In this document: positions 27,856 to 57,983 of the stretch, piece by piece
How positions within the stretch are numbered: position 1 is the stretch's first letter
How the letters are laid out: every line of letters starts with the position of its first letter
IMG/VR virus record: IMGVR_UViG_3300043399_000446
Span: 22,133 to 86,132 of that record
Reading direction: 5' to 3' (one strand)
Length of the DNA stretch: 64,000 nt
Source of the DNA: a virus
Translations under genes and position numbers: made by a program
The notes under the pieces: generated by a model
What the model was told of the DNA's origin: nothing
The model's database searches: none
Seen by the model: the letters and a program-made list of their open reading frames with translations, nothing else

Positions 27856-28422
27856 TTATATTTTTTTTCTACAGTTATCAAAATGCCATCTTGACATAGC
27901 AGGGTGCTGCCCCATTTTTCCACATTTAGGGCAAGTGGAAATAGGCTTAGGTCCTTTATTTTTACCCAATAATGCTTTACTTATATTAGGCCTTTTTCTA
28001 CCCTTAAGTGCTTTACTAACATGTGGTAGAGGCTTACCTAATTTACTAATACTTATAGATTTGCAATGTTGTTCAGACTTTTTCTTGCCCTCATGAGATT
28101 TACTCATTTTATTGCGTTGAGTTTTTGAGAATTTGAACCCCTCTATACCTTCACCCCCATCTGTAAGATTTCTTAGAATTCCTGTTCCTAAATCCTTTCT
28201 ACCATACCACTTAATCATTCTTCTTTCTATAGCAAGGGCACCCAATTCAGTTAAATTATGCTCTAATATTATTATTTGAGAAAAATCTTTTGGTATATTT
28301 ATAGTATGTTTTTCAATGGCTCTGGTGTTCTTTCCTTTACCAATATAATAAGGTGTCCCATCTTTTCTAAGGTAAGCGTAAACGTAAAAACCAACAGGAA
28401 TAATTTTTTTGCTAAATACCAT
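27856..28422 (-). mobile_element. GIY-YIG-like homing endonuclease A (NUMOD3-like + Zn/RWHFDNC tail)
   Basis: FYVYAYLR...PYYIGKG...RA...E...[10 protein letters not shown]; start after AAGGAG SD. Confidence 0.75.
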
Positions 28423-28492
28423 GGCTGACTGCTCCTTACAAGCGTTAGAGAGGATGGGTATTTCCAGTACCGCGATCCTCAATATCTATTTA
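28413..28492 (-). promoter_or_regulatory. conserved structured endonuclease leader, copy 1
   Basis: TAAATA-GAGGAT CGC GGTA loop TACC C ATCCTC-TCTAACGCT-AAGGAGC-CAGC-ATG, plus antisense TAAATA. Confidence 0.75.
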
Positions 28493-28981
28493 TCACTTAT
28501 CTTTGGTTTTCTGACCTAGCATTTTCAATAGCTCATTTCTATCAGCTATTAATTTACCTTCACCTAAAGGAGTATTTTCTAGTTCTTTATTTGCTGCTTC
28601 ACTTTTTTGATCTAGTGCAGCTTTTTTCAACTGTAACTCAATCATTTTTAGCTTTTTATTAAGTTTAGCTGTTTTTGCTGTTATTGCATGACCTAAAAAT
28701 GTCCCTGCCGCTGCAAATATTTCACTGCTATAGCGACTATCTACCTGCATACCTAGCTCTTTCAAGTCCTTAAAACTGTCTACCGCTAAGTTTGCTAGTT
28801 CATCCATTTCTATATCGCTAGCTTCTAAACCACGCACTTGAGGTAATGCGTTGTCTATCTTTTCTAAATTGTCTAATGCGTCTTGTGTAACTTCTTTTAT
28901 TTCTTCTTTAGGTATAGGAAGATCGTCGTTAGATTCGTCATGCTGTGCTAGTTCAAAAAGTTCTGATAGTTTTTTAGTCAT
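28493..28981 (-). CDS. possible terminase small subunit
   Basis: 162 aa helical protein with a gp16-like pattern, next to gp4; weak resemblance only. Confidence 0.4.
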   Translation of the reverse strand: MTKKLSELFELAQHDESNDDLPIPKEEIKEVTQDALDNLEKIDNALPQVRGLEASDIEMDELANLAVDSFKDLKELGMQVDSRYSSEIFAAAGTFLGHAITAKTAKLNKKLKMIELQLKKAALDQKSEAANKELENTPLGEGKLIADRNELLKMLGQKTKDK

Positions 28982-40224: not shown

Positions 40225-40405
40225 GTTTTGGTGCCCGATTTAACTTAAGGCGCCAAAACATCCGCCAGCGAATGCTTTGTGGGGTTTTGTGTAGACTTTG
40301 CGTCCCAGTCAGCCATTTACCGTCAATAAGTTTGCCAAAAGGCTTTGGTTTAGGTTGACCCTTTAGCAATCGGCGTGCTACTTGTTCGTAGGGAGAAAGT
40401 TTCAT
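40211..40405 (-). CDS. small basic early protein, leaderless
   Basis: MKLSPYEQ..., ATG 7 nt after the -10 box. Confidence 0.5.
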   Translation of the reverse strand: MKLSPYEQVARRLLKGQPKPKPFGKLIDGKWLTGTQSLHKTPQSIRWRMFWRLKLNRAPKLDNK

Positions 40406-40412
40406 AGCAACT

Positions 40413-40441
40413 ATTATGACACGACCCTCATTTATTGTCAA
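40413..40441 (-). promoter_or_regulatory. sigma70 early promoter
   Basis: TTGACA-17 nt-CATAAT; shares TTGACAATAAAT with the 40224 promoter. Confidence 0.75.
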
Positions 40442-40477
40442 CTTATTGAACCAAATAACTTTGCGATAAATAAGAGT

Positions 40478-42184
40478 ATGCCCAAACTATCTTTATACAA
40501 ACCAAATAAGCAAAATGACTATAGGTTCTTTGATCGTACCATTTCAGAAATGTTTACGGCTGGAGCCACTGATTTGTATGTACACAAGTATGCGGGCGTA
40601 GCCAATACAGGCCCAAGCAATGACTTTACACAGCCTGAATACGATAAACCAGATCCAACACAAATACAAGATTTACTATTCTTAGAGAATAGGGATCGTG
40701 TGTACGACCAAAACATTTATAGATTACGTGGTCACTACAATGTACAGAACCTGGACTTCGACTTGAGTCAGTTTGGTTTGTTTCTAAACAATGATGTGAT
40801 CTTTATAACTGTACATTACAATGACATGATCGACATCATGGGTCGCAAGTTGATGGTAGGCGATGTAATAGAACTACCCCATCTTATTGATTACAATCCT
40901 CTTGACGAATCATTACAGTATGCTTTAAAAAGATTTTATCAAATCACTGACGCAAACTATGCCAGCGAAGGTTTCAGTCAAACTTGGTTCCCACATCTTT
41001 GGCGTATAAAGTGTGAACCCTTAATCAATAGTCAAGAGTTCCAAAACATACTCAACAAACCCAACAATGAAGATAACTATTTGGGCAATTATGATCCCGA
41101 TAAAACTTATCCACCTGGGTATACGGTTCAGTATGGCGACAAAGTTTATGAGTCATTGAAAGAAGTTCCTATAGGTAAAAATCCACCCGATCCAGAATTT
41201 TGGAAAGAAATACCTGAGGGTGGCACATTATCTGACATTATTTCAACTTATAATAAGAATATCGCAGTTAACGATGCGATGCTTGAAGAAGCAAAACGAT
41301 TGCTACCTAAGTCAGGATACGATACAGGTAATCTTTATGTCGTGCCAACTTACGGAGTAAAATCAGGTAAATTTGACCAACCTGCACCACCTATAAACAT
41401 TTTGGGTAGTCCATTAGGATTAAGTGCTGTTATAGGTACAGTTGTATTGATGAAAGATCCCAACTATAAGAATAGTAGCCCTGTCATCAAAGTGTCAAAG
41501 CAGGCAGTGCAGAGCTTTTGGGACATGACTGCTGACATGGATCACATAAGCGATCCATTAGACGCATTCGTTGCTTTAAGTTTAGAAACAGATGAAATAG
41601 CTCCTGAAAGAACATCCACAGGATCGGGTGCAGTAAGCGGTGAGAAAGTTGTTGTAGCACAAAGTAATGGTATCATTTTAGGACCCTATGGTACCGCCGA
41701 TAATACTTACGCAACTGCTGACCAAGATCCAGTAGCTCCTGGATTTACAGGTACAGAGCCATATGGTCCCAATACAATGAACTATCGCGCAGACTGCGAT
41801 CCAAGATTTCAGTTCATAGCGCGTAGCAGTCCAAGATCATTTGGTTATACTACAGGATACCTAACAGGTGACGGTACTGCACCAAATGGTTTCCCAACAG
41901 GCGTGGGTATTTCCTTCCCACAAGATCCTAAAGTAGGCGATTATTTCTTGCGTATAGATTATTTTCCTCAACTACTTTATAGATGGGATGGTAATCTTTG
42001 GATTAGAATAAGCGAAAATGTAAGAACAGATACAGGCTTCACCGCAGAAGATCAATCACAACTATCCGGATTCATCAACAATGAAAACACAACTACATTG
42101 ACTGATGGCGAAGTTGTACCTCAAGCACAAGCACTATCTACAATCTTGACTGTAGCTCCTGACGACATTCCTCCAGAAGCTTAA
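40478..42184 (+). CDS. neck/head-closure protein (gp14-like) with extensions
   Basis: MPKLSLYKP, LSQFGLFL, VGDVIELP; start 5 nt after TAAATA. Confidence 0.7.
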   Translation: MPKLSLYKPNKQNDYRFFDRTISEMFTAGATDLYVHKYAGVANTGPSNDFTQPEYDKPDPTQIQDLLFLENRDRVYDQNIYRLRGHYNVQNLDFDLSQFGLFLNNDVIFITVHYNDMIDIMGRKLMVGDVIELPHLIDYNPLDESLQYALKRFYQITDANYASEGFSQTWFPHLWRIKCEPLINSQEFQNILNKPNNEDNYLGNYDPDKTYPPGYTVQYGDKVYESLKEVPIGKNPPDPEFWKEIPEGGTLSDIISTYNKNIAVNDAMLEEAKRLLPKSGYDTGNLYVVPTYGVKSGKFDQPAPPINILGSPLGLSAVIGTVVLMKDPNYKNSSPVIKVSKQAVQSFWDMTADMDHISDPLDAFVALSLETDEIAPERTSTGSGAVSGEKVVVAQSNGIILGPYGTADNTYATADQDPVAPGFTGTEPYGPNTMNYRADCDPRFQFIARSSPRSFGYTTGYLTGDGTAPNGFPTGVGISFPQDPKVGDYFLRIDYFPQLLYRWDGNLWIRISENVRTDTGFTAEDQSQLSGFINNENTTTLTDGEVVPQAQALSTILTVAPDDIPPEA

Positions 42185-42804
42185 CTAGGTTTAAACTTAC
42201 AGTTATCAAAGTGCCATCTAGGCATGGTACACGATCCCCCTTGCTTATTGCAATGGGGACATGTTACTATTGGGTATTTCATACCAGTCCTTGACTTTGC
42301 GCTTTTTTCTATCCATTCTTTTGATAAAGGTCTTCCTTTATTTTTATTAGGTCGTGTTCTTTCTTTAGATTTATTAGATTTTTTATATTTTAATCCTATC
42401 TTTTTTGCAAGATATTCAGGAGAGCGTTTTATACCTCTTTGTCTTTTACTTTTATTTTCGTTTTCTTCAGTAGAATGTTTTTTGCCTTTAAGCGCCTCAA
42501 TGATTTTTTTTCTACCCTCAAGTCCAGGATCGCCTCCATCCTTGCCATTCTCGTACTTTAAATTGGCCCAATGTACAGACTCAACTATATTATTATCCAT
42601 GGAAAATTGCAATGCAAAATTAGTGCAATCTTCTTGATTGTTGAATTCCCATACAGAAACGGTTTCTATGTCTTTTCCGTGTTTTTTTAAATGTCTATTC
42701 CAATATTTTCCAGATCCTGTATAATTATAAGGATCTATGGTTGTCTTTCCAAAATAATTCAATCCGGTTTTACGATGACGTTTATGATATAGATAAATAA
42801 TCAT
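42181..42804 (-). mobile_element. Seg-like GIY-YIG homing endonuclease B, inverted between gp14 and gp15
   Basis: IYLY...YFGKT...Y-x-GSG, NUMOD3-like basic repeats, CPHC...RWHFDNC. Confidence 0.75.
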
Positions 42805-42869
42805 GCTGATAGCTCCTTCATAGCATTAGAGTAGTTGGGGACTGCAATCCCGCGAACTACACATATTTA
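42794..42869 (-). promoter_or_regulatory. conserved structured endonuclease leader, copy 2
   Basis: TAAATA-GTAGTT CGC GGGA loop TCCC C AACTAC-TCTAATGCT-AAGGAGC-CAGC-ATG, plus antisense TAAATA. Confidence 0.8.
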
Positions 42870-42884
42870 TTCAAGGAATTAATT

Positions 42885-44255
42885 TTGGCTACCTATTTTT
42901 ATGACGCGCAGATAAGACGATTTTTAATTCAATTCGCAAAAATCTTCAGTTCGTGGTATGTCACTAAAGGCAAGGATCCTAACGGAAATCCTATACTTGT
43001 TCGTGTTCCTATCATGTATGGAGATAGTAGCCGCCAAGCAGCTACTATTATTGCTAATAATAGTGCCAGCAATTTACCTACTGCACCTTTACTTACATAC
43101 CACATTACAGGATTAGAATACGATCAACGTAGAACTCAAGTACCTACTTTAGTAGACAAGATGCAGGTAAGACAAAGAACTTACAATCCTGAATCACAAA
43201 GTTATGAGACTACTCAGGGGCAGGCATTTACTGTTGAAAGATTGATGCCCGTACCTTATACACTAAGATTACAGGTAGATTTTTGGTCTACAAACTATCA
43301 GCAAAAATTAGAGTTAGTAGAACAGTTAGGAACATTATTCAATCCTGGCTTAGACATTCAAAGCACAGATAACTTTATAGATTGGACATCGCTAACGGTA
43401 GTATTTCAAGATGGTATAACTTGGAGTTCTCGTAGCATACCGCAGGGCACAAACAATCCTATCGACGTACTGTCTTGGAAGTTTTACATTCCTATTTGGA
43501 TCAGTACTAGTGCTAAACTTAAAAAGATGGGTGTTATTCATAAAGTTATTGCTTCGATACATAAAGGCACAGCTTTACAAGACATACAAGACGAAGATTT
43601 ATTGTTGGGAACAAGACAAAAGATTTCACCTTATGGTTATAAAGTACTATTGATAAATGGTATGCTACAGCTATTACCAAATGATGTAGCTTTTTATCCA
43701 CCTAATGAGTCTATTGAAGAACCTACAAATCCCAATACATCGATTTATTGGTCATCGTTGTTAAATGTTTATGGTACTATAAAACCAGGAATTTCACAAA
43801 TTTGGTTACAAAATCCCTATATGGAAACTGAAATTGTAGGTACAATAACACCTGATCCATTAGACGATAGATTCTTGATCTATAATATTGATCCTGATAC
43901 ATTACCTCAAAATACATTGGGACCTGTCGATAGTATCATCAATCCACAATTAGTAGGTCCTAACGCGGGGTTACCAGGACCTGTAAATGGTCGAAGATAC
44001 CTAATAGTTGAAAACATTGGATTCCCAGGTAGCCCAACAGTAGCTTGGGGTGATTTGGTAGCTAATGCTAACGACATAATAGAATACAACTCCAGTACTG
44101 GTGAATGGCATGTTTCATTTGACAGTCAAGTATCAGATAGTGTAGAATACGTTACTAATCTTACTACCAACATTCAATACCGTTTTACAGAAGGTGTTTG
44201 GATGAAATCATTTGAAGGGTGGTATGGAGAAGGCGATTATTCTATAGTTATCTAA
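42885..44255 (+). CDS. tail terminator / sheath stabiliser (gp15-like)
   Basis: YFYDAQIRRF, VPIMYG, MPVPY, QKLELVEQ...FNP; TTG start. Confidence 0.8.
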   Translation: MATYFYDAQIRRFLIQFAKIFSSWYVTKGKDPNGNPILVRVPIMYGDSSRQAATIIANNSASNLPTAPLLTYHITGLEYDQRRTQVPTLVDKMQVRQRTYNPESQSYETTQGQAFTVERLMPVPYTLRLQVDFWSTNYQQKLELVEQLGTLFNPGLDIQSTDNFIDWTSLTVVFQDGITWSSRSIPQGTNNPIDVLSWKFYIPIWISTSAKLKKMGVIHKVIASIHKGTALQDIQDEDLLLGTRQKISPYGYKVLLINGMLQLLPNDVAFYPPNESIEEPTNPNTSIYWSSLLNVYGTIKPGISQIWLQNPYMETEIVGTITPDPLDDRFLIYNIDPDTLPQNTLGPVDSIINPQLVGPNAGLPGPVNGRRYLIVENIGFPGSPTVAWGDLVANANDIIEYNSSTGEWHVSFDSQVSDSVEYVTNLTTNIQYRFTEGVWMKSFEGWYGEGDYSIVI

Positions 44256-45010: not shown

Positions 45011-45961
45011 TTATTCCTTGTTGATACTTACGATAGGATAAGTTACACCAGCGGCTGCATTAGCATCTTCTGCACTATTGAATGTTGCATAAGCAGGATT
45101 TGCATTTTGTAGTAAGGGCGCACTGTTACCAAAAATTTCAAGATTCACATCGCTCAAGCTTTGTACAAATGCTGTAGCAGCATTAGCATAAGTTGCGATA
45201 ATGTTCATTGTATTTGGTGTTAGTGAAGCATTAGCTACGTTAGCTGTTTGACACTGAGCTACTAGGCCACTTGTTGCACCTTGAACTAGATACTTTTGTT
45301 TGCCTTTTTGACGAACAATAAATCCTGGCTCGTTTGTGGCAAAAACGAATGCGGCATCAGTAGCATCAACTTCTGCGTTTGCAGCTAGTTCTAGTTCAGT
45401 ATCACTTGTAATTGAATCTACGTAGCCCACTAATGTACCGTCAGCTAATGTTAGAACTGAACCCACAGCTAGTTCTGTATCAAATGCTGTATCTACACCA
45501 GTAACTGTTGTGCTTGTAGCGTCTGTAGTAATTGTTCCGGTACCTGTTTGACCAATAGCTACACGGCACAATACTTGATTACCATAAATTGCTGTATTAC
45601 CACCGACTACACCATAAGTGTTTGAAATACCAGCTGGATTGTTGAAACCTGAATCAACTACACCAACTGATGCTGCTACACTTTGACCTGTTGTTGCTGA
45701 AAGATTTACAGGTGTATAAGTAGGATTTGCATTTAGAGGTGTCGCTGATACTGTGAAAGTAGAAGCACCGGTAACTTTTAGAATCCAGTATGTTGTACCA
45801 GCAACCAAGCCACCTACGTTACTTGCTGCAACGAATGGCATACCTGCAATAATACCTAGGCTAGCTAATGTCTGTGATACTGTAACTTCTTCTGTACTTG
45901 CGTTTGTTGCTGTGATTGTAAGCACGGCTTGTGCTTTTGCGATTTTTAGAGGACGTCCCAT
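45011..45961 (-). CDS. virion structural protein (MGRPLK family)
   Basis: A/T/G-rich, IVRQKG motif, strong SD, late promoter. Confidence 0.6.
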   Translation of the reverse strand: MGRPLKIAKAQAVLTITATNASTEEVTVSQTLASLGIIAGMPFVAASNVGGLVAGTTYWILKVTGASTFTVSATPLNANPTYTPVNLSATTGQSVAASVGVVDSGFNNPAGISNTYGVVGGNTAIYGNQVLCRVAIGQTGTGTITTDATSTTVTGVDTAFDTELAVGSVLTLADGTLVGYVDSITSDTELELAANAEVDATDAAFVFATNEPGFIVRQKGKQKYLVQGATSGLVAQCQTANVANASLTPNTMNIIATYANAATAFVQSLSDVNLEIFGNSAPLLQNANPAYATFNSAEDANAAAGVTYPIVSINKE

Positions 45962-45976
45962 TTGTTTCTCCTTTTG

Positions 45977-46040
45977 TGACGGGCGTTCTAGGCCCTACGC
46001 GGTGGGGACCGCATAAACTCTCCCCATGAGAGTATAGTCA
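45977..46040 (-). ncRNA. cis-regulatory structured leader (4-way junction with kissing loops)
   Basis: P1 TGAC/GTCA encloses three hairpins; TGGG(GA) and TCCCCA loops are complementary. Confidence 0.65.
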
Positions 46041-46064
46041 AGTATTTATCTAAAACGGATAATT

Positions 46065-57201: not shown

Positions 57202-57243
57202 TTGGTCCTTTTTCTGTTATTATCAGTATTTATCGTCAGGTAA

Positions 57244-57319
57244 TAAATAAAAAGGTAGTTCGCGGAATTGGCCTTCCCAACTACTCTAATGCTATAAGGA
57301 GCACCAGCTTGTATATTTA
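57244..57319 (+). promoter_or_regulatory. conserved structured endonuclease leader, copy 3
   Basis: TAAATA-GTAGTT CGC GGAA loop TTCC C AACTAC-TCTAATGCT-AAGGAGC-CAGC-TTG, plus antisense TAAATA. Confidence 0.8.
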
Positions 57320-57983
57320 TTATGTTTACGCATATTTGCGGCAATTTAATTCAAACACGGGTAAGGCAGGAACTCCCTATTATATTGGAAAGGGGAAACA
57401 TAAAAGGGCTTGGTCAAAGAACCACTCTGTAAATCTTCCAAAACTAAGTTCAAATATAGTAATTTTAGAAAGTGGTCTAAGTGAATGTGGAGCTATAGCA
57501 TTAGAACGACGCCTTATTAAATGGTGGGGGAGGGTAGATATTTCTACGGGAATTTTACGAAATAGAACTGACGGAGGCGAAGGTACTGAAGGTAGAAAAA
57601 ATAAGTTCAATCAATCGGGAAGCCTTAATCCATCTTTCGATGATACTATCTATACATTTTACCATAAAACAGGATTGATTGAAAAATGTACACAATTTGA
57701 ATTACGGAAAAAATATAATCTTAGGGCAGGAAATCTTAGTGCCGTAATTAAAGGATATGAAAAATCAGTAAAGGGTTGGCGTATTACGGAAGAATTTATT
57801 GACTTAACAGGTAAAAGGCAGCGTGGATGTGATGATGTTTATACTTTTATTCATACTTCAGGTATAATAGTCGAAATGACCCAAAGACAATTATTTTTAA
57901 ATTTTAATTTAAAAACAAGGTCAGGTATAAGCCTCTTATGCCATAATAAAATAAAATCATACAAAGGATGGAGATTGGGGTAG
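57309..57983 (+). mobile_element. GIY-YIG-like homing endonuclease C with two C-terminal HTH-like repeats
   Basis: YYVYAYLR...PYYIGKG...[10 protein letters not shown]; two YTF-x-H...KS-x-KGWR repeats; TTG start. Confidence 0.75.

Follow-up and report, generated by a model that had tools for sequence, protein, structure and literature searches.

Introduction

The homing endonuclease genes of T4-type phages are known to be controlled by late promoters, by hairpins that hide the ribosome-binding site (RBS), and by autorepression. The insertion sequence IS10 carries a promoter, pOUT, that lies inside the 5′ end of its transposase gene and is able to drive adjacent genes. Passages of PMC5006887 describe IS10 RNA-OUT as a 69-nucleotide (nt) folded antisense RNA that blocks ribosome binding on transposase mRNA and exerts multicopy inhibition, and art200 of IS200 (PMC4513863) is a comparable antisense RNA. 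Here we report on a leader of about 75 nt that precedes three endonuclease genes in a 64,000-nt stretch of DNA (hereafter the window, the whole stretch analyzed), which is part of the 86-kilobase (kb) contig IMGVR_UViG_3300043399_000446 of IMG/VR and comes from a distant T4-like phage. In all three genes the first codons behind this leader contain the hexamer TATTTA. We propose that this hexamer is the complement of an antisense late promoter, whose product would be a small folded RNA comparable to RNA-OUT.

The likeness to RNA-OUT of IS10/Tn10 lies in the plan: a selfish, nuclease-type gene, and a small folded RNA that would run from the opposite strand across its translation start. Unlike the IS10 system, the one described here is a phage homing-endonuclease cassette with a presumed T4-late-type promoter, and both of its promoters would be late. 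The predicted RNA, which has no sequence similarity to RNA-OUT and is known from sequence alone, has two hairpins that cover the whole 5′ untranslated region (UTR).

In full-text searches of the literature, only CfrI of cyanophage S-PM2 was found as an antisense RNA or promoter at endonuclease leaders. According to passages of PMC2984593, CfrI is an antisense RNA opposite a homing-endonuclease gene and was the first of all antisense RNAs to be found in T4-like phages. It thus shares with the present case its position antisense to a homing-endonuclease gene in a T4-like phage, but in those passages it is about 225 nt long, links the endonuclease gene to psbA, has an unknown function, and is not presented as a portable leader that has its promoter within the first codons. 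Promoters for neighboring genes inside endonuclease open reading frames (ORFs) are noted in a part of PMC2988022 that raises antisense transcripts only as a possibility. Among metagenomic "fractured gene" endonucleases (Dassa et al., PMC2677866, in part), hairpins were reported in 15 of 16 5′ UTRs, ten including TATAAATA, together with two conserved motifs that may overlap the leader studied here.

Two further kinds of element invite comparison. At I-TevI, I-TevII, I-TevIII, segB, and Aeh1 mobE, the hairpin includes a promoter-proximal arm and hides the RBS on the read-through sense RNA; unlike these, the hairpin found here lies wholly downstream of the sense start and off the Shine-Dalgarno (SD) sequence, and it is selected on the other strand. 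The PeSL cassettes of T4-like phages are, in passages of PMC4122927, short modules of a stem-loop and a promoter at the borders of variable genes, serving as exchange points between unrelated sequences. They resemble our leader in being short, conserved, composite regulatory modules. By their description, which is what we compared, PeSL elements join an early promoter to a terminator in hyperplastic regions, whereas the leader has two facing late-type boxes, carries the SD and the start codon, and is tied to endonuclease genes.

Results

Conservation of the box in the first codons

The three endonuclease genes of the window and the predicted antisense boxes within them are the following.

57309–57983, plus strand: site 3 endonuclease ORF, TTG start, 224 amino acids, SD AAGGAG at 57296–57301; phrog_15526 (function listed as unknown)
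57314–57319, minus strand: site 3 antisense box, extended AATAAATA, opposite endonuclease codons 2–4; predicted start at the G opposite 57308
42181–42804, minus strand: site 1 endonuclease ORF, 207 amino acids; phrog_314, homing endonuclease
42792–42799, plus strand: site 1 antisense box, a full GATAAATA; predicted start at G42805, 80 nt before the gp15 TTG at 42885
27856–28422, minus strand: site 2 endonuclease ORF, 188 amino acids; both neighbors co-oriented
28413–28418, plus strand: site 2 antisense box, GCTAAATA, weaker than the other two; predicted start at G28424

All three genes stand behind a common leader of about 75 nt (alignment A1), in which TAAATA is followed by 5 nt, a bulged hairpin (P1), CUCUAAYGCU, AAGGAGC, a short spacer, CAGC, the start codon, and TATTTA. 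The three leaders are homologous copies and therefore do not represent three independent events. An earlier note on this DNA had pointed to TATTTA in the first codons, and the sequence is as it described: the genes begin ATG ATT ATT TAT (minus strand, start at 42804), ATG GTA TTT AGC (minus strand, 28422), and TTG TAT ATT TAT (plus strand, 57309), and on the opposite strand TAAATA lies at 42794–42799, 28413–28418, and 57314–57319, in each case exactly 5 nt before GCTG. The string TAAATA-N5-GCTG has three matches in the window, all at endonuclease starts. Its expected number is 0.40 ± 0.60, and none of 100 shuffles reached three.

The leader is widespread in IMG/VR contigs, where it occurs in hundreds of uncultured phages. 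It was sought there in three scans; all counts are of distinct sequences, not independent events, among the matches listed, so that totals are lower bounds. Scan 1, with the hairpin core and CUCUAAYGCU as its pattern, yielded at least 118 stretches. The first leader set was reduced from 121 matches to 107 distinct leaders, and the second from 202 matches to 155. Counts for the second set rest on 153 leaders, cases at contig ends having been skipped, and one leader in it lacked a parsable CAG plus start. The third scan fixed only the sense box and the P1 core and brought in leaders with different sequences in the second helix, P2. Core matches with fewer than four Watson-Crick pairs in the lower stem, including chance matches such as L358 and L359, were dropped from this third set, which retained 224 leaders, 221 of them with a P2 helix.

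Among the 107 leaders of the first set, 101 have TATTTA 4–7 nt after CAGC, 88 of them at exactly 5 nt; five of the remaining six carry TACTTA at the place of the box and one carries something else. The start codon lies 2, 1, or 0 nt before TATTTA in 78, 12, and 11 of the 101 leaders, and the hexamer is accordingly read in all three frames, as M-x-I-Y, M-[IVL]-F-x, and M-Y-L. Information content reaches 1.3–1.9 bits per position in the box, compared with 0.48 and 0.07 bits at the two preceding bases. Beyond the box it amounts to 0.03–0.7 bits, and nothing that could be another promoter is conserved in that part of the ORFs behind the 107 leaders.

Inspection of the synonymous positions proved decisive, since the third bases are frozen. 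In the 79 leaders that encode M-x-I-Y, the third base of codon 2 is T in all 79, across nine amino acids, against a background of 6435/19374 (33%). The isoleucine is ATT in 78 of the 79 (background 509/1258, 40%), and the tyrosine is TAT in 66 (background 567/832, 68%). In nine variant leaders the start codon is found 8 nt upstream of the helix end (ATG TCC AGC), and the box still stands 5 nt after CAGC. In this variant class (L388, L389, L390, L405, L420, L423, and others) the start codon falls within the 3′ arm of the second helix and the SD in the loop. TATTTA is thus conserved at the nucleotide level.

A fourth endonuclease gene (MVKRTQTYRKVYVQHYG...), HNH-like and on the minus strand, precedes the window by about 12 kb (its window coordinate is about −12072). 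It is preceded by GATAAATA and by another type of leader, rich in G+C, and TATTTA is missing behind its start codon. The box thus belongs to the leader of about 75 nt rather than to endonucleases generally.

The ORFs behind the 107 leaders show N-terminal motifs of several nuclease types; single-linkage clustering placed 91 of the 107 in one cluster and did not separate the families. The labels GIY-YIG-like and HNH-like given to ORFs of other contigs are our own reading of these motifs, as is the reading of YIGKG in the site 3 endonuclease, which suggests a GIY-YIG-like enzyme. PHROGs assigned "homing endonuclease" families to two of the three window endonucleases, and Pfam gave no family for any of the three. 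The leader is probably a portable element of about 75 nt common to unrelated homing-endonuclease genes.

Searches of reference collections did not return the leader. Rfam had no match at E ≤ 10 on either strand at the leaders of sites 3 and 1 and none at the gathering score at site 2, and GenBank phages gave no DNA match for the 93-nt leader (distant mode) or for the 3-kb region (near mode). Among cultured phages, the closest homologue of the endonuclease, that of Synechococcus phage S-SRM01, has no such leader and is preceded by a sigma-70-like upstream region.

Structure on the antisense strand

Applied to the sense alignment A2, RNAalifold predicted the P1 hairpin, with six compensatory pairs and no G·U pair; all single-sided departures were A·C. 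In the lower stem of P1, read on the sense strand, the 107 leaders contain 622 Watson-Crick pairs, 18 A·C oppositions, and no G·U pair. The corresponding figures for the 153 leaders are 886, 31, and 0, with A·C in 12 of the 31 distinct stems and G·U in none. Read from the antisense strand, each of these A·C departures becomes a G·U pair. Folding of the reverse strand brought out a second hairpin, P2′, that is present only on the antisense strand: C-U-G-R-Y, an optional bulged U, and G-C-U are paired with A-G-C-R-U-U-A-G around a loop with CCUU. The GCU/AGC stem that the earlier note had drawn in the antisense RNA does exist, but only as the inner part of this 8-base-pair (bp) hairpin (CUGRY-GCU / AGC-RUUAG).

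The antisense fold was the more stable one in 149 of 152 leaders, with a mean of −18.9 versus −14.0 kcal/mol. When 19 pairs were scored in 149 distinct leaders, the antisense strand had 2510 Watson-Crick pairs, 299 G·U pairs, and 21 unpaired positions, and the sense strand 2510, 9, and 311, respectively. In alignment A3, which holds 150 of the 152 leaders, 99.3% of the cells were paired, as against 87.1 ± 0.4 in shuffles and 33–51% with slid partners, and seven pairs showed compensatory change.

For the third set, P2 was chosen by its Watson-Crick pairs alone, which is a strand-neutral rule. Among the 221 leaders so obtained, P2 pairs 4–8 covary (AT/TA/GC/CG), and pair 3 is a sense A·C in 217. 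The other non-Watson-Crick oppositions are 134 A·C versus 2 G·U in P2 and 31 versus 2 in the lower stem of P1, which brings the sense-strand totals to 382 A·C (antisense G·U) versus 4 G·U. The A·C stems occur in at least 12 different stem sequences. We had also considered the fifth position of the upper stem as evidence for wobble pairs; it was set aside, as both classes occur there and the position is probably part of the loop. Judged by these pair counts, both leader helices are selected on the antisense strand, opposite the endonuclease gene.

At the three sites of the window the RNAs predicted from this structure are as follows.

57243–57308, minus strand: site 3 predicted antisense RNA, with P2′ opposite 57286–57307 (CCUU loop), P1′ opposite 57255–57284, and a U-rich tail opposite the sense promoter
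42805–42872, plus strand: site 1 predicted antisense RNA and gp15 leader, with P2′ at 42806–42829, P1′ at 42831–42860, and the tail ACAUAUUUAUUC
28424–28493, plus strand: site 2 predicted antisense RNA, with P2′ at 28425–28448, P1′ at 28450–28480, and a tail opposite the sense promoter

The antisense folds of sites 3, 1, and 2 have minimum free energies of −18.4, −16.3, and −19.7, with z-scores of −1.80, −1.81, and −2.14; the sense-strand z-scores are −0.76, −1.15, and −0.03. Besides having covarying helices, the predicted RNA includes the complement of the SD, and CCUU occupies the P2′ loop. P1′ is followed by a tail complementary to the A-rich sense promoter, its most frequent form being ACUUUUAUUUAU; the commonest tail, ACTTTTATTTAT, belongs to 23 of the 107 leaders. 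A weaker U tract ahead of an essential gene was looked for as well and rejected, as the mean number of T in the first 8 nt did not differ between contexts (4.22, 4.43, and 4.40; Mann-Whitney p = 0.41).

Layout of the two boxes

The sense promoters that face the antisense boxes in the window lie at these positions.

57244–57249, plus strand: sense late-promoter box of site 3, separated by 5 nt from the G at the P1 base
opposite 42864–42869: site 1 sense promoter box
28487–28494: site 2 sense promoter, GATAAATA

The reading of TAAATA as a late-type box, put forward in the earlier note, agrees with its surroundings: the antisense box has the same layout as the sense late promoter, namely (A)TAAATA, 4 nt, T, and G. 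In the 150 leaders of A3 the six columns of the antisense box are T in 145, A in 147, A in 144, A in 138, T in 146, and A in 146. The base before it is A in 117, and C is absent from the position two before, which holds A in 63, T in 37, and G in 34. Downstream, 4 nt separate the box from a T (132 leaders) and the G next to it (145). The sense box of the 107 leaders is similarly preceded by A in 77, has C two before in only 5, and is followed by T in 103 and G in 102; in 74 of these leaders the sense TAAATA ends 10 nt before TCGCGG. From the end of the antisense box it is 5 nt to the G just ahead of the first paired base of P2′, and the sense box keeps the same spacing to the G at the base of P1. 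In 88 of the 107 leaders a G stands 5 nt after the antisense box, at the base of P2′. When the base two before the sense box was compared with the equivalent antisense base of the same cassette, no match was seen.

The antisense box thus has what a late promoter has in sequence, a TATAAATA-like −10 element and no −35 element. In the 86-kb contig GATAAATA occurs in 24 copies, of which 20, by our count, are followed within 85 nt by an ORF start on their own strand, the copy at 42792 (plus strand) included, and it looks like the phage's own late-promoter consensus. It has G where the T4 late-promoter consensus has T. The T4 consensus is also named in a part of PMC2677866. Given the fixed geometry, the flanks resembling those of the sense box, the GATAAATA specificity, and the lack of any other conserved candidate, the box is probably the promoter of the antisense RNA.

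Insertion sites and neighboring genes

The surroundings of the site 1 cassette are as follows.

40382–42184: gp14-like ORF, on one side of the inverted site 1 endonuclease
42885–44255: gp15, on the other side of the inverted site 1 endonuclease

Among cultured phages, the best relatives of the gp15 homologue are those of jumbo phages about 35% identical to it, such as Agrobacterium phage Atu_ph07. That the inverted endonuclease has separated gp15 from gp14, as the earlier note held, was borne out by comparison with loci that lack the insertion: in 53 of 54 distinct relatives there is no endonuclease and gp15 directly adjoins a gp14-like ORF. For this count identical upstream sequences were collapsed, and listed loci in which the match starts less than about 650 nt into the locus were left out. 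The gp14-like ORF of the relatives has the same C-terminus (...APDDIPPEA), and the gap between gp14 and gp15 measures 3, 9, and 60 nt in three endonuclease-free loci. The two closest relatives (L197 and L199) carry a GATAAATA of their own 41 nt before gp15. An independent contig, L203, has an inverted cassette at the same gp14/gp15 junction, some 29–130 nt upstream of the gp15 match and with a GATAAATA box. No GATAAATA other than the site 1 antisense box precedes gp15 in the window, and this box, at 42792, is likely also the gp15 promoter, to judge from its sequence and position.

At site 3 the cassette is absent from 46 of 46 relatives (identical upstream sequences collapsed, 10 loci with too little upstream sequence set aside), and the neighboring gene has its own native promoter.

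The ends of the site 1 insertion can be placed from two observations. The stop codon of the inverted gene, at 42181–42184, overlaps the region in which the gp14-like ORF stops on the opposite strand, and a mere 15 nt separate the complement of the sense promoter box from the TTG start of gp15. What was inserted thus consists essentially of the leader and the ORF, some 700 bp in all. The gp15 start of the relatives, ATG GCA CAA TTT, corresponds in L203 to ATT TCC CAA TTT.

Other observations concern the leader on other contigs. Behind intact leaders, 9 of 100 complete ORFs are only 4–87 amino acids long (L051, L028, and L056, for example), and the leader seems to outlive decayed endonuclease genes. 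Some leaders (L011, L029, L066, and similar ones) have no sense TAAATA and instead show, just beyond the hairpin on the antisense strand, TTGACA-17 nt-TATAAT, a perfect sigma-70-type promoter sequence that points away from the endonuclease. Many other leaders have TGTCAA 8–12 nt upstream of the sense box. The stem-loop beside an early-type promoter sequence in the L011, L029, and L066 class recalls PeSL cassettes.

Elsewhere in the window, at 45959–46033 (minus strand), Rfam identified a full-length freshwater-2 RNA (RF02980) with 63.3 bits, the gathering score being 49.9; it was the sole Rfam match in the window at gathering score. This RNA is flanked by a GATAAATA at 46043–46050 and by the ORF 45011–45961, and its presence places the phage among freshwater viruses.

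Discussion

We consider it probable, at roughly 0.6, that a cis-antisense RNA of about 65–70 nt, comparable to IS10 RNA-OUT, is made from a T4-type late promoter on the antisense strand. TATTTA would then represent the TAAATA core of a second, antisense promoter, and the RNA would begin with the G of GCUG, which lies 5 nt past the box. The RNA would consist of the 5′ hairpin P2′, one unpaired A, the 3′ hairpin P1′, and a U-rich tail complementary to the sense late promoter. With CCUU in the P2′ loop as the complement of the Shine-Dalgarno AAGG, it would be fully complementary to the endonuclease mRNA from the 5′ end through the base before the start codon. We infer that the box fires and that the RNA holds endonuclease expression down, as RNA-OUT does that of the transposase. 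Convergent transcription, which would run over only about 65 bp, may itself have that effect through direct interference with the sense promoter, and the two promoters would both belong to the late period. In cassettes that lie inverted between host genes, any transcript reading past the hairpin would serve the next gene, as may be the case for gp15 at site 1. Of the two convergent late promoters and the antisense RNA envisaged in the earlier note, what has been found is the conserved box, the promoter-like layout, and the structural selection on the antisense strand, while the transcript, its start at GCTG, and the repression are predictions from these sequences.

Several results weigh against this reading. 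Bare TAAATA is not specific, with 97 copies in the window where 124 ± 10.6 are expected, and the site 2 box, GCTAAATA, is a poor match to the phage's own GATAAATA. The commonest variant of the box, TAAGTA (10 of 150 leaders), alters a conserved promoter position, and it would keep a G·U pair were the box part of an RNA helix. The search patterns of scans 1 and 2 themselves fixed several columns of P2′ and P1′, and only the third scan was free for P2. Finally, a terminator scan, in which bulged stems are not modeled, called no terminator at any of the three sites, and a run of at least four T follows the hairpin in only 30 of 97 leaders.

The possibility that the hexamer merely reflects a conserved N-terminal peptide, the I-Y of GIY-YIG enzymes, combined with AT-rich codon usage, deserves next to no credence. 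ATG NNT ATT TAY, or M-x-I-Y, is indeed what 78 of the 101 leaders read, and I-Y is similar to the first GIY-YIG motif. But the other two registers (M-Y-L and M-[IVL]-F) keep the hexamer in 23 of 101 leaders, it is also kept in proteins with HNH-type motifs, and the fourth endonuclease, with its different leader, lacks it; together with the frozen synonymous sites and the constancy of the box at CAGC+5 when the start codon moves 8 nt upstream, this led us to reject amino-acid conservation and AT bias as its cause. Another reading places the effect on the sense strand, in the manner of T4 e and I-TevI: in read-through mRNA, UAUUUA would pair with the promoter UAAAUA and enclose the RBS, and late transcripts, starting inside that helix, would be translatable. 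The logic is established for I-TevI, segB, Aeh1 mobE, e, and soc in passages of PMC2988022, and the complementarity of the hexamers spans 9, 7, and 6 bp at sites 3, 1, and 2, respectively. Folded with their flanks, 30 of 97 leaders (31%) give this helix a probability above 0.5, and site 3 gives it 0.59; yet the median is 0.04, the value is about 0 at sites 1 and 2, and RNAalifold does not predict the helix, which would consist of 6–9 A-U pairs around a loop of about 60 nt with the SD and AUG themselves unpaired. No RBS-sequestering hairpin of the I-TevI type was found in the leader, in which P1 starts at the predicted sense +1 and ends before the SD. Moreover, TATTTA is kept in four of the five leaders that lack a sense TAAATA within 40 nt (L005, L011, L029, and L066), all one-sided changes in the leader favor the antisense strand, and the fixed spacing to CAGC would be left unexplained. 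With the extension of this long-range pairing into the flanks only weakly above that of permuted sequences, we retain sense-strand occlusion as a minor and very improbable alternative.

Two other explanations accept more of the antisense evidence. The structure may be real and the box no promoter at all, being instead a part of the RNA that pairs with UAUUUA from the sense promoter and closes a three-helix fold, or else a protein site; the RNA would then come from host read-through across inverted cassettes. The conserved segment is bracketed by the two boxes, each an exact inverted repeat of the other, the TAAGTA variant would retain its G·U with U in the closing helix, and the outward extension of pairing is in slight excess (1.45 versus 1.27 ± 0.08 in permuted sequences, p = 0.015). 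We nevertheless regard this explanation as improbable. Box and structure persist in the 26 of 82 cassettes that are co-oriented with both neighbors, and host read-through is therefore no evident source of antisense RNA there. The ORFs offer no other conserved promoter candidate (0.03–0.7 bits after the box), the box keeps exactly the 5-nt spacing to its hairpin that the sense promoter keeps to its own, and the flanks show no covariation at the second position. Alternatively, the antisense promoter may be real and selected for outward transcription, restoring late expression of host genes beyond an inverted cassette; the folded 5′ end would merely stabilize the mRNA, and silencing would be a side effect or absent. 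This account, which is possible but on balance unlikely, draws on the surroundings of the cassettes. By a crude longest-ORF rule for neighbor strands, which itself limits the account, the upstream neighbor is on the opposite strand in 58 of 98 callable cassettes and both neighbors are in 40 of 82; in 42 of 57 divergent cases there is no other TAAATA between cassette and neighbor start. Promoters of genes lying downstream occur within T4 seg and mob genes (passages of PMC2988022), and at site 1 a full GATAAATA precedes gp15, which in relatives adjoins gp14 or has a GATAAATA of its own. However, the box is kept where there is no downstream gene to serve, in 36 of 40 co-oriented versus 56 of 58 divergent cassettes, as is the 7-mer TATTTAT (28 of 40 versus 40 of 58), and at site 3 the neighbor has its native promoter while the cassette is absent from the 46 relatives. 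Antisense-only G·U stems also occur in co-oriented cassettes, which hold 4 of the 17 leaders with A·C pairs; a link of such stems to the inverted context, with 12 of 58 divergent against 4 of 40 co-oriented cassettes, is too weak to use. The outward promoter that the earlier note had invoked to cancel the polarity of the insertion is therefore likely at site 1, where the box is the sole GATAAATA before gp15, but with similar retention in co-oriented and divergent cassettes the relief of polarity cannot be what generally conserves it.

A broader version of the antisense-promoter reading would make the leader a portable, orientation-proof module, passed between unrelated nuclease families in many uncultured T4-like phages, whose RNA-OUT-like RNA inhibits all resident and co-infecting endonucleases in trans in a copy-number-dependent manner and which feeds the next host gene if the cassette is inverted. 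Action in trans on every cassette in the cell is suggested by the near identity of the SD-proximal part between cassettes. We find this extension doubtful and offer it tentatively.

Homing endonucleases need enough expression to spread, and little enough to spare the phage, without breaking host operons. If the antisense-promoter reading is true, a module with its own antisense RNA gene, common to GIY-YIG-like and HNH-like genes and represented by at least 221 distinct leaders, would be a third kind of endonuclease control. Phage endonucleases would thereby be tied to the antisense logic known from insertion sequences, and a small RNA acting in T4-like late transcription would become open to direct test. 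The same reading would explain why so many environmental endonucleases begin with M-x-I-Y.

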